Translations under genes and position numbers: made by a program
Shown here: positions 55,605 through 58,972 of the stretch, one piece after another
Numbering within the stretch: the stretch's first letter is position 1
How the letters are laid out: each line of letters starts with the position of its first letter
The notes under the pieces: model-generated
The model's database searches: none
Told to the model about the DNA's origin: nothing
What the model saw: only the letters and a program-made list of their open reading frames with translations
From: Escherichia coli
Lineage (GTDB): Bacteria > Pseudomonadota > Gammaproteobacteria > Enterobacterales > Enterobacteriaceae
NCBI RefSeq assembly: GCF_013315695.1
Contig: NZ_CP054353.1
DNA length: 64,000 nt
Reading direction: 5' to 3' (one strand)

Positions 55605-58223
55605 TCATTGTTGAGCCAAAGCCTGATCCGATGGTTGTGCCGTTTCGCTCCGCTCCGGGCGGCGAGGAATAAACGATACAACCCAGGAAACCAGAGAAGT
55701 CAGCACACGGAATATGCCCTTCACCGAAGAAGGCGCAAACTCCGCCAGATGGCGGTAGCCACGGAAGCCGAGCTTCAGAATATCCAGCAGACTTTCCAGC
55801 GGCTTATCTTCCGGATAGCTGTCCTGCCAGAGCGCCCATGTATCCGCACGGGCAAACGTACACTGCACAAAATCGATATGTTGCTGGGTGGTGAGCGGCA
55901 TTAATTTCAGCCCAACTTCATTACCCATCACGCGCGCCACCTGGGTCGGGAAGACGTATTCCTGCTGACCACGTTTAAGCAACAGATTCACTTTCTGCCC
56001 TTCCAGAATCTGCGCCTGACCGTTGATCTTGATCCCCAAACCACCGTCGGAGAAATCCTGAACGGTACACGAGAAGAGGTGACCATCTTCGCGGGCAATT
56101 GCCGCGGGCATCGTCATCTCCACGCGGTGCGATCGGCGTACCTGTTTGCTTTCTACCGATACCGCAACTGCGCCGCCAAGAACAATCAGGTTGTAGAATA
56201 CCCACACCATACTGACGACCACGGTGAGCATCTCGGTTGGCGGGCCATAGAAGTAGCGCCAGATGCCTACCGCAACGCCCACCAGGTTGAGCAGAACAAG
56301 GAAGATGTAGGGCCGCGAGATCACCCAGTCGACGTACTCTTCTTCCACCAGTCCACCTTTGGCGGTAACGTTAAATTTGCCTTTGTGCGGGTTAATCAGC
56401 GCCACCAGCGTCGGTGGTGCGATATACCACGCCAGCACCGTTTCGTAGATTTCACTCCAGAAAGAGTGGCGATATTTGCCCTGGATCTTCGAGTTGGTCA
56501 GGCTGGCATGAATCATATGCGGCAGCACGAACAGGGCGATCATCAACGCTGGCGCATAGATGATGTAGGCATGCAGCAGCAGGAACGCCAGCGGCGCAGT
56601 CAGGAAGATCAGTCGTGGAATGCCCGACAAGAAGTGGAACATGGCGTTGACATAGCACAGCCGCTGAGCAAACTTCAGCCCTTTACCGGTGAGCGGGTTA
56701 TCGAGACGGAAGATTTGCACCATCCCGCGCGCCCAGCGAATACGCTGACCGATATGCGCCGACAGACTTTCGGTCGCCAGCCCCGCCGCCTGCGGAATAC
56801 GCATATATGCAGAGGTGTAGCCACGACGGTGCAAACGCAGAGAAGTATGCGCATCTTCGGTTACCGTTTCGACAGCAATGCCGCCAATCTCATCCAGCGG
56901 CTTACGGCGAATCACCGCACATGAACCGCAGAAGAAGGTGGCGTCCCACATATCGTTGCCATCCTGCACCAGACCATAGAACAGCGTACCTTCGTTCGGT
57001 GTTTTACGGAAACGTCCCAGGTTGCGTTCAAACGGGTCCGGTGAGAAGAAGTGGTGCGGCGTCTGCATCATCGCCAGTTGTTTTTCTTTCAGGAACCAGC
57101 CCATGGTCATTTGCAGGAACGATCGCGTTGGTACGTGGTCGCAGTCGAAAATCGACACGAACTCGCCTTTGGCATATTTCAGCGCATTGTTGATGTTGCC
57201 CGCTTTCGCATGTTCATGAGTGGTACGGGCGATATATTTCACCCCCACGTTTTGCGCAAACTGGCGAAACTCTTCCCTGCCGCCGTCATCAAGGATCCAA
57301 ATGTTCAGCTTGTCTTTCGGCCAGTCGATACCCAGCGAGGCGTAAATCGTATTTTTCACCACGTTGAGATCTTCGTTGTAAGTCGGGACAAAGATATCCA
57401 CCGACGGCCACAGCGACATATCTTTCGGCAATGGCACCGGCTGACGATTCAGCGGCCATACCACCAGGAAGTAACCGAGCACCAGCACAATCCACGCGTA
57501 CGTTTCGGCGAACAGCAGAATAAGCCCGCACACCAGGCTGACCGGATCGTCCCAGTTCAGCGTAGAGGTGTAGCGCCACCAGATATAACGGCAAGAAACG
57601 GTCAGCGACAGCACAATCAACATTAGCGCCGAGAAGCGCCCCGGCATCCGCCGTACGATCAGCGCTACACCCCACAGCAGCATCAGGAAGATAAACTGCG
57701 CCAGCGGGTTAAACGGCTGGGTAACGCAGATTAACGCCAGAATCAGCGAGAAGGTGACGATGATACCGAGGATCAACCGCCGCGCCCCGGCGCTCAAATG
57801 GCCGAGTTCTTTTTTCTCATCGAGATGCTGTGTTTTATGGCTAACGCGCTCAGGCAGCTCGTTCATCCATTGATGGTAACGTCCACGAATATTCTGCAGA
57901 CCTGAAAATGTCCGCCTGCGCGGTTTCGGCGTTTCTTTGCGCGATGTACCGATCAGTAACCAGCATGTTTGAATGAGATAACGGACCGGGTCCAGCGGAC
58001 GCGGACGCGAGGCGTTGATATGCGGATACAGGTTTTTATGTTCTGCGCGAATACGCTGCCAGCGCGGGTGCTCCAGCGGAATAAAAATCCAGGCCAGGAT
58101 CAACCAAAAACAGCCGAGCGTCGCGCTGAAAGCCGACGCACCGTGACGACGATAATCGCGATAACGCCCGATAAGCCGCGCGTTGACCGGCGGGATAAGC
58201 AACCACCGGGTCAGGATACTCAT
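55605..58223 (-). CDS. bcsA: Cellulose synthase catalytic subunit BcsA (GT-2 with PilZ domain)
   Basis: ORF 55605..58271; start set to MSILTRWLLIPPVNARL... (872 aa); overlaps the bcsQ stop. Confidence 0.9.
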   Translation of the reverse strand: MSILTRWLLIPPVNARLIGRYRDYRRHGASAFSATLGCFWLILAWIFIPLEHPRWQRIRAEHKNLYPHINASRPRPLDPVRYLIQTCWLLIGTSRKETPKPRRRTFSGLQNIRGRYHQWMNELPERVSHKTQHLDEKKELGHLSAGARRLILGIIVTFSLILALICVTQPFNPLAQFIFLMLLWGVALIVRRMPGRFSALMLIVLSLTVSCRYIWWRYTSTLNWDDPVSLVCGLILLFAETYAWIVLVLGYFLVVWPLNRQPVPLPKDMSLWPSVDIFVPTYNEDLNVVKNTIYASLGIDWPKDKLNIWILDDGGREEFRQFAQNVGVKYIARTTHEHAKAGNINNALKYAKGEFVSIFDCDHVPTRSFLQMTMGWFLKEKQLAMMQTPHHFFSPDPFERNLGRFRKTPNEGTLFYGLVQDGNDMWDATFFCGSCAVIRRKPLDEIGGIAVETVTEDAHTSLRLHRRGYTSAYMRIPQAAGLATESLSAHIGQRIRWARGMVQIFRLDNPLTGKGLKFAQRLCYVNAMFHFLSGIPRLIFLTAPLAFLLLHAYIIYAPALMIALFVLPHMIHASLTNSKIQGKYRHSFWSEIYETVLAWYIAPPTLVALINPHKGKFNVTAKGGLVEEEYVDWVISRPYIFLVLLNLVGVAVGIWRYFYGPPTEMLTVVVSMVWVFYNLIVLGGAVAVSVESKQVRRSHRVEMTMPAAIAREDGHLFSCTVQDFSDGGLGIKINGQAQILEGQKVNLLLKRGQQEYVFPTQVARVMGNEVGLKLMPLTTQQHIDFVQCTFARADTWALWQDSYPEDKPLESLLDILKLGFRGYRHLAEFAPSSVKGIFRVLTSLVSWVVSFIPRRPERSETAQPSDQALAQQ

Positions 58224-58972
58224 GATGCACTCCCGACTGGCGTTTTCAGCCCGGAATAGTTCAACAGGCACCAGTTAGCCAGCGTCAGTATCTCTTCAGC
58301 CGCCAGCGCATCACTGCGGTATTCACCGACTGGTTGCTTAGCCGCCAGGCATTGAGCCATCGCTTCATCACGATGAATGAGTATTGGCAGTAATCGGCGC
58401 TGGCTTTGCAACCAAAGCTGGTAAATATCGTCCTGAACCTGACTGCCGATACGGAAGTCATTAATCAAAATATGCGCGCCATCCGGCAGCGCTTGCTGAT
58501 GCAGTCGGATATGGCAGTTGGCATCCACATTGACGATTGCCAGCGAGTGATCGCACAAACTCAGCAGCTGGTGGGTTATCTGTGAGGCATCACGCGGTAA
58601 GTCAATTAAAATCCACTGGTAACGCCCGCTGGCTTTTAGTTGCTGTAAGCCGGAGCAAATATCGCTCAGCCGGGTTTGCCAGTGCTGTGGATTTTCTTGT
58701 TCTTCAATGGATAACTGACCAAAAGGCAGCAAATCGAGCTGCGAGGTATAGCGCAACCCGGCGTCACGCCAGTCCTGGCCATCCAGCATAGCTCTGGCCC
58801 AGCCCTGACGGTGGGTAAAATCAACGTTAAATGACAGGCGCAACAAGTTGTCCGGGCAGGCATCGACCACCAGGACATTTTCTCCCAACATTTGTAATGA
58901 CCAGGCTAATGCGGCGGTGATGGTTGTTGTCCCCACGCCTCCCCGCACCCCCTGCAATCCCAGTACGGCCAT
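58220..58972 (-). CDS. bcsQ: Cellulose biosynthesis ATPase BcsQ (MinD/ParA family), uninterrupted
   Basis: 250-aa ORF MAVLGLQGVRGGVGTTTITAALAWSL... with no internal stop. Confidence 0.85.
   Translation of the reverse strand: MAVLGLQGVRGGVGTTTITAALAWSLQMLGENVLVVDACPDNLLRLSFNVDFTHRQGWARAMLDGQDWRDAGLRYTSQLDLLPFGQLSIEEQENPQHWQTRLSDICSGLQQLKASGRYQWILIDLPRDASQITHQLLSLCDHSLAIVNVDANCHIRLHQQALPDGAHILINDFRIGSQVQDDIYQLWLQSQRRLLPILIHRDEAMAQCLAAKQPVGEYRSDALAAEEILTLANWCLLNYSGLKTPVGSAS

Follow-up and report, generated by a model that had tools for sequence, protein, structure and literature searches.

The bcs locus and the bcsQ reading frame

In the 64-kb stretch of Escherichia coli DNA analysed here (the window), a type II cellulose locus of the bcsRQABZC plus bcsEFG arrangement is present in incomplete form, as seven of the nine genes are intact, bcsR and bcsE are truncated, and the promoter-bearing 271-bp bcsR-bcsE intergenic region is absent. 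On the minus strand, bcsQ (58220–58972) is followed by bcsA (55605–58223, 872 aa, four amino-acid differences from K-12), bcsB (53255–55594, 779 aa), bcsZ (52142–53248, 368 aa) and bcsC (48687–52160, 1157 aa), and on the plus strand the bcsE remnant precedes bcsF (61143–61334, 63 aa, identical to K-12) and bcsG (61331–63010, 559 aa). In comparison with K-12, neither stops nor indels were found in bcsA, bcsB, bcsZ, bcsC, bcsF and bcsG, all of which are full length and collinear.

For bcsQ, an earlier sequence-only reading had claimed a 250-aa frame free of internal stops, which is borne out at exactly these coordinates, with 250 codons plus stop beginning at an ATG. Considering that 250 stop-free codons have a chance probability of (61/64)^250, about 6e-6, and that only 16 of 753 nucleotides differ from K-12 (737 identical), the open frame is not due to chance. 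The deduced protein matches the Pfam family CBP_BcsQ (PF06564) at an E-value of 8.8e-114 and 379 bits, against a curated cut-off of 21.3 bits, with residues 1–236 aligned to positions 1–234 of the 234-position profile. As in the bcsRQABZC operon, the gene lies between bcsR, a C-terminal remnant of which is found 11 bp upstream, and bcsA, the start of which overlaps the bcsQ stop by 4 bp in the motif ATGA. In its length of 250 aa, full-length CBP_BcsQ match, Gly14, gene position and ATGA overlap, it resembles the wild-type BcsQ that was crystallised from E. coli strain 1094 (PDB 6YBU/6YAR) and that belongs, as a MinD/ParA-like NTPase of the SIMIBI class, to the type II Bcs secretion system. Four of the 250 residues differ from the crystallised protein (6YBU chain A), including the lineage polymorphisms Ile197 and Gln207, and residues 1–172, with the sequence GVRGGVGTTT, are exactly the same. 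Gly14 of the N-terminal glycine-rich nucleotide-binding loop, whose exchange in a G14S variant was reported to be inactivating (PMC5727187), is thus retained. In contrast to the 1094 system, however, the obligatory partner gene bcsR is truncated in the window and the operon promoter is gone.

The same reading had ascribed a premature stop early in bcsQ to K-12 laboratory strains, correctly so: codon 6 is TAG in MG1655 (NC_000913.3; b3534), where the gene is annotated as a pseudogene, and TTG (Leu) in the window (58955–58957, minus strand), corresponding to the K-12 mutation 17 T>A that has been mended by Serra et al. (PMC5944007). Alignment of codons 1–10 gave identity except for codon 6, and together with the K-12 annotation it leaves neither an overlooked frameshift or stop in the window nor an intact K-12 bcsQ. 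The K-12-type TAG allele is absent from the window. Besides codon 6, BcsQ departs from the K-12 protein only by M197I and E207Q, both common to the closest relatives.

Leu6 bcsQ is the ordinary wild-type and majority state. A 61-mer of the window centred on codon 6 has an exact match in 3551 of 5247 complete E. coli genomes, and the corresponding K-12 TAG 61-mer in 349 of 5244. The 40 listed of these 349 carriers, among them MG1655, C600, DH5alpha and J53, are apparently laboratory strains of the K-12 lineage or their derivatives, judging by name or source. CFSAN061762 and PRO_A-1370, considered as natural isolates with the K-12 allele, were rejected because their bcsQ frames are interrupted at codons 120 and 68, respectively. 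That bcsQ is intact in wild E. coli and stopped early in K-12 is already textbook knowledge, and an intact bcsQ, as most genomes of the species have it, carries little evidential weight.

The IS1 element between bcsQ and bcsE

Upstream of bcsQ, an IS1 element of the IS1A type occupies positions 59050–59817 on the minus strand, extending from GGTAATGACTCC to GGCAGCATCACC. It is 768 bp long, possesses terminal inverted repeats as well as the insA and insB frames, both reading towards bcsQ, and is identical to the other three copies of IS1 that the window contains; RefSeq labels an identical copy as IS1A family transposase with programmed frameshift. On its left side, bcsR is reduced to its 21 C-terminal codons and the stop (REQLAAALKRWPLLAEFAQQK; 58984–59049, minus strand), with the start codon and the first 41 codons lost. 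This remnant is in frame with insB, yet lies five codons past the insB stop, and in RefSeq it has the status incomplete, missing N-terminus. On the right side, bcsE (59818–61146, plus strand) begins at codon 82 of 523, having lost its promoter and the first 81 codons, which belong to the N-terminal domain. Its first in-frame ATG is at 59827 (Met85), and the remnant covers positions 80–513 of 513 in the Pfam profile CBP_BcsE.

The DNA replaced by IS1 amounts to 638 bp when measured on K-12 and to 637 bp when measured on MS 21-1, the closest intact relative. It comprises 41 of the 62 codons of bcsR, 81 of the 523 codons of bcsE and, between them, the divergent promoter region of 271 bp. The same allele is already annotated in the RefSeq genomes MSB1_4I and AF3; in the junction-identical MSB1_4I, bcsR and bcsE alone are marked as partial pseudogenes.

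Origin of the lesion

A target duplication of 8–9 bp is not present at this IS1, the flanks being CTGTTCGCG on the left and TTATTTTCA on the right. In STEC346, a strain of unrelated background, IS1 is found at the identical nucleotide and in the same orientation as a simple insertion with the 9-bp duplication CTGTTCGCG, and this site corresponds to the left junction in the window. Flanks lacking a duplication, at a site where STEC346 has one, fit an adjacent deletion better than a simple insertion. Adjacent deletions are classically documented for IS1. Probably, the event proceeded in two steps, insertion into bcsR and then IS1-adjacent deletion into bcsE. First, IS1 would have entered bcsR between codons 41 and 42, generating the duplication of CTGTTCGCG and directing its transposase genes towards bcsQ. 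Subsequently, a deletion from the IRL end would have removed the second CTGTTCGCG copy and about 637 bp, namely codons 1–41 of bcsR, codons 1–81 of bcsE and all 271 bp of the divergent promoter region between them. We infer the order of these steps, whereas an insertion at the site proposed for the intermediate actually exists in another strain.

Two-step events in which an adjacent deletion takes away the target duplication are common, as described for IS150 in the Lenski long-term experiment (PMC11708052). The window shares with these deletions the single retained IS copy, the missing target duplication, a junction at a known simple-insertion site and the lack of flanking DNA on one side; in contrast to them, the intermediate is seen in the unrelated STEC346 and not in the window's own lineage. 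A parallel pair is given by 14EC047 with a simple insertion and EC24 with the same left junction and a 768-bp deletion. Moreover, IS1 is active in the clone of the window, as in the region of 5.1–6.9 kb one extra IS1 insertion with duplication and another IS1-adjacent deletion of 1167 bp distinguish the window from MSB1_4I and AF3. Clone members differ by only about four SNPs in 45 kb. Alternatively, the original insertion could have occurred at the bcsE junction, where TTATTTTCA is very AT-rich, with a deletion leftward to a preferred IS1 target, or two IS1 copies of the same orientation could have recombined. AF14, closest among the relatives that carry an IS1 in the region, was rejected as progenitor, since its element is intergenic, at a different site and in opposite orientation.

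Predicted consequences for cellulose synthesis and wider occurrence

Very probably, the window thus holds a wild-type Leu6 bcsQ within an E. coli-type bcsRQABZC/bcsEFG locus that was knocked out by IS1 in the two-step history outlined above and is predicted not to confer cellulose synthesis. BcsR, BcsQ and BcsG are indispensable, and maximal output also requires BcsE and BcsF (PMC5727187, PMC7840130); a non-polar deletion of bcsR abolishes cellulose secretion (PMC5727187), and BcsQ aggregates when BcsR is missing (PMC7439463). In the window, BcsR would be absent, both operons promoterless and BcsE truncated, and BcsQ, albeit encoded by a whole frame, would be poorly expressed and unstable. In its present setting, deprived of BcsR partner and promoter, the intact bcsQ is therefore probably non-functional. 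A scan revealed no promoter-like site between IS1 and bcsQ or before the ATG of the bcsE remnant, and no fusion or outward promoter at either IS1 end reached the scan threshold. We infer loss of transcription and a cellulose-negative phenotype. The K-12 locus, bearing the L6* allele of the same gene (repaired in AR3110; Serra et al., 2013), is likewise predicted to be cellulose-negative, but by a point mutation instead of an upstream IS1 insertion plus deletion, and in contrast to the window it retains intact bcsR, promoters and bcsE.

The sequence-only reading had pointed to the IS1 deletion as the inactivating lesion of a previously cellulose-competent locus. In favour of the former, the lesion at IS1, removing bcsR, both promoters and 81 bcsE codons, is the only disruptive one seen. 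The assignment to the deletion itself has to be modified, as the simple IS1 insertion at the left junction in STEC346 suggests that inactivation probably began with the insertion into bcsR and that the deletion followed. Prior competence, on the other hand, is not provable from sequence, because the 64-kb window does not extend to the regulators csgD, dgcC and rpoS, and because strains with complete reading frames can be cellulose-negative. BL21 and H10407, for example, have complete bcs ORFs and yet produce no cellulose (PMC5944007, PMC5727187). The locus might have been silent before the arrival of IS1, owing to a fault in regulation or a harmful missense substitution, with insertion and deletion representing neutral decay. 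Loci with multiple hits do exist, such as those of CFSAN061762 and PRO_A-1370, both combining a bcsQ nonsense codon with an IS1 in bcsE, the close relative MS 21-1 has an internal stop in bcsG, and the Bcs proteins of the window show 3–12 substitutions each versus K-12. However, these substitutions are lineage polymorphisms and not private changes, BcsQ and BcsG are identical to the proteins of relatives with complete loci, and no second disruptive lesion turned up across the roughly 14 kb of bcs coding sequence in the window, rendering earlier silencing unlikely.

The promoter driving the IS1 transposase is both weak and autorepressed, and polarity is a classical property of IS1 insertions. 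Still, read-through from this promoter could yield some bcsQABZC transcript. That bcsQABZC is expressed in this way to an extent sustaining BcsR-independent cellulose synthesis or a BcsQ function is highly improbable, even though the insA promoter (CTGCCA-16-TATGAT, 59810–59783, minus strand) is aimed at bcsQ, a scan of that strand found no terminator-like site and IS1-derived (fusion) promoters are known elsewhere (PMC9330008): secretion is abolished by the non-polar bcsR deletion, BcsQ would aggregate, bcsEFG with the essential BcsG is promoterless too, and the intact state of all downstream genes, which persistent expression would explain, is equally accounted for by a recent event in view of the few SNPs among clone members.

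With bcsQ being a bystander and the neighbouring IS1 insertion plus deletion the informative lesion, the single case has little significance beyond the annotation lesson that an intact ORF is not a functional gene once its promoter has been lost along with bcsR, its obligatory partner. Of modest interest is the wider IS1 pattern at the divergent bcs promoter region, which includes clinical clones. Among 5426 complete genomes, at least nine distinct IS1 junction configurations occur within about 0.9 kb of the bcsR-bcsE region, eight of nine having IS1 in the same orientation; unrelated backgrounds share IS1 at an identical nucleotide, and insertion followed by adjacent deletion is found at least twice. 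The IS1 in bcsE of MB10, considered as sharing the right junction of the Iso00270-type deletion, was rejected, as the two sites are 11 bp apart (14958 versus 14947 in K-12 locus coordinates), both having annotated remnants of 1083 bp. Tentatively, and with a probability somewhat below even, the bcsR-bcsE region might be regarded as a recurrent IS1 target, and IS1 as an under-counted, possibly selected route of cellulose loss in human-associated and bloodstream clones.

This pattern bears on work in which the virulence of extraintestinal E. coli is tied to the loss of cellulose. For extraintestinal pathogenic strains of ST95 and other STs, the main text of a Nature Communications study of 2024 describes convergent loss of function in bcsRQABZC-bcsEFG (PMC10881479). 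The window resembles these cases in the disruption of the cellulose locus in a human-associated clone, which includes the bloodstream isolate AF3. As far as that main text goes, the lesions lie within ORFs and truncate them by nonsense or frameshift mutation, in contrast to the IS1-mediated removal of promoters in the window, and the words "insertion" and "IS1" are absent from it. Its ORF-truncation screen may have counted too few promoter deletions caused by IS elements. If true, the IS1 route would complement the nonsense and frameshift losses of cellulose described for ST95.

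The bcsQ frame and the codon 6 stop of K-12

The uninterrupted 250-aa bcsQ frame claimed in the sequence-only reading is returned at identical coordinates in the ORF list (58220..58972, - strand, ATG start), and its product matches the CBP_BcsQ profile of Pfam across the whole length (E 8.8e-114). Of the 250 residues, 4 differ from those of E. coli BcsQ as crystallised (6YBU/6YAR). MG1655 bcsQ (b3534) carries a pseudogene annotation. Alignment of both genes (753 nt each) shows 16 substitutions and no indels, and the sole consequential difference is at nt 17, where the window encodes Leu6 (TTG) while K-12 has TAG. 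The early K-12 stop named in the sequence-only reading is real and lies at codon 6, in agreement with the published 'TTG/TAG (17 T>A)' change, the repair of which by Serra et al. brought cellulose back in W3110 (PMC5944007). Further residue changes are limited to M197I and E207Q, both common to the closest relatives.

An uninterrupted bcsQ is not unusual but ordinary. The window version of a 61-mer around codon 6 is found exactly in 3551 of the 5247 complete E. coli genomes having the site, and the TAG-bearing K-12 version in 349 of 5244; the 40 matches listed for the latter appear to be laboratory strains of the K-12 lineage or derivatives, judged by name or source. Among the genomes compared, natural isolates carry bcsQ nonsense codons elsewhere, at positions 68 and 120, and for ST95 a Q178* allele has been reported (PMC10881479).

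Anatomy and expected consequences of the IS1 lesion

BLAST against the MG1655 bcs region resolves the window into two collinear blocks, 45000-59049 (K-12 locus 14-14063, gap-free) and 59818-63418 (14702-18303), separated by a 768-bp IS1 (59050-59817) with insA/insB on the - strand, reading towards bcsQ. A target-site duplication is absent at this element, the flanks being CTGTTCGCG and TTATTTTCA. IS1 replaces 638 bp compared to K-12, or 637 bp compared to MS 21-1, the closest relative with this region intact. Lost are 41 of the 62 bcsR codons (the N-terminal part including the start), all 271 bp of the intergenic region bearing the divergent bcsRQABZC and bcsEFG promoters, and the N-terminal 81 of 523 bcsE codons. 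The bcsR remnant (58984-59049, 21 codons plus stop) lies in the insB frame, 5 codons beyond the insB stop, and has no plausible start. In strain MSB1_4I, which has the identical junction, bcsR and bcsE are the only genes marked as partial by the PGAP annotation (RefSeq). All other bcs genes, that is, bcsA (872 aa), bcsB (779 aa), bcsZ (368 aa), bcsC (1157 aa), bcsF (63 aa) and bcsG (559 aa), are full length with neither stops nor indels compared to K-12, and pdeK is intact.

Non-polar deletions have established BcsR, BcsQ and BcsG as essential for cellulose secretion, with BcsE and BcsF required for maximal output (PMC5727187; PMC7840130). Moreover, BcsR and BcsQ are mutual chaperones, and BcsQ aggregates without BcsR (PMC7439463). 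In a consensus scan, neither the stretch from IS1 to bcsQ nor that 5' of the first ATG of the bcsE remnant (59827) yielded a promoter-like site; on the - strand, only the transposase promoter of IS1 itself, located in IRL, one of the IS1 ends, is aimed at bcsQ. Taking the need for BcsR, the aggregation and the missing promoter-like sites together, bcsQ, although intact, is very probably a bystander without function. From the same literature, no defect beyond the IS1 lesion is needed to predict that the strain is cellulose-negative. The proposal that IS1 is the inactivating lesion is partly supported: no other change in the locus is disruptive, and this one is sufficient in principle, but the uninterrupted bcsQ from which earlier cellulose competence had been argued is weak evidence for it. 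Cellulose-negative strains with complete bcs ORFs do exist (PMC5944007, PMC5727187). Overall, none of this is new in kind.

Origin of the lesion and IS1 activity in the clone

IS1 junctions of ten other loci were placed on K-12 coordinates. Strain STEC346 (pork, China), with flanks 99.6-100% identical to K-12 (98.3% for the window), has a simple IS1 insertion in identical orientation at the very nucleotide of the window's left junction (14063), with a 9-bp duplication, CTGTTCGCG, at 1542-1550 and 2319-2327 of its fetched locus. [quoted passage not shown] This two-step route is well documented (PMC11708052). The same-nucleotide bcsR insertion in the unrelated STEC346 represents either an IS1 hot spot or a model of the window's missing intermediate. 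A second such pair is formed by 14EC047, with a simple insertion at 14116/14109, and EC24, with the same left junction and a 768-bp deletion into bcsE. On the strength of both pairs, a first step of IS1 insertion into bcsR, which by itself would be inactivating, followed by a deletion extending into bcsE is favoured; possible alternatives are the opposite order of events or recombination between two IS1 copies.

MSB1_4I, from a rectal swab in Australia, matches positions 46000-64000 with 100% identity, and AF3 (blood culture, UK) shows the same bcs IS1 junction. Absent from both MSB1_4I and AF3 are an IS1 at 6128-6895 with a 9-bp duplication and the loss of 1167 bp adjoining the IS1 at 5099-5866. 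Apart from these two changes, about 4 SNPs in 45 kb separate the window from MSB1_4I. The two changes mark the window as a third member of the clone, and the bcs lesion is older than the split of the three isolates. A fourth IS1 (34591-35358, between rcdB (yhjC) and yhjB) is also present in MSB1_4I. All four window copies are identical, which together with the new insertion and the IS1-adjacent deletion shows that IS1 is currently active in the clone. Both changes at 5.1-6.9 kb (window 5099-6904) hit a 407-aa hypothetical gene, intact in MSB1_4I and AF3, that is located where yhiS would be in the ars-slp interval; 261 bp of it lie between two identical IS1 copies.

As to the neighbourhood, a chu/shu heme-uptake cluster (chuA-chuS and chuTWXYU) is present between dctR and yhiD at about 9100-17500 and marks a non-A/B1 phylogroup; strains named ST648 are among the best bcs-region matches. 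At the right end (63013-64000) begins a tandem array of ldr/rdl repeats, type I toxin-antitoxin units about 483 bp in length, at a position with five Ldr toxin genes in MSB1_4I versus one (ldrD) in K-12.

IS1 and other lesions at bcs loci of E. coli

At a query coverage of at least 80%, 37 of 5426 genomes carry IS1 inside the bcsQ-bcsE stretch, and more do so with larger deletions. Among these genomes, a group of 22 shares a 782-bp IS1-flanked deletion (flanks at K-12 locus 14164 and 14947). Simple insertions map to at least six sites, distributed over bcsR, bcsE and the intergenic region. In complete E. coli genomes, a raw count gives at least nine distinct junction configurations within about 0.9 kb (14055-14967), eight of nine with IS1 in the same orientation. 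A published screen for cellulose loss describes truncating mutations (nonsense, frameshift), and neither 'insertion' nor 'IS1' occurs as a word in its main text (PMC10881479).

Independent bcs lesions in other genomes make it appear common for the cellulose locus to decay through multiple hits. In the fetched loci of CFSAN061762 and PRO_A-1370, bcsQ nonsense codons 120 and 68 (bcsQ at 721-1473 in each) occur along with IS1 in bcsE. Besides, bcsG of MS 21-1 has an internal stop (5151-6637 of its fetched locus), and one more fetched genome bears IS1 in bcsA (1-1268 of the fetched locus).
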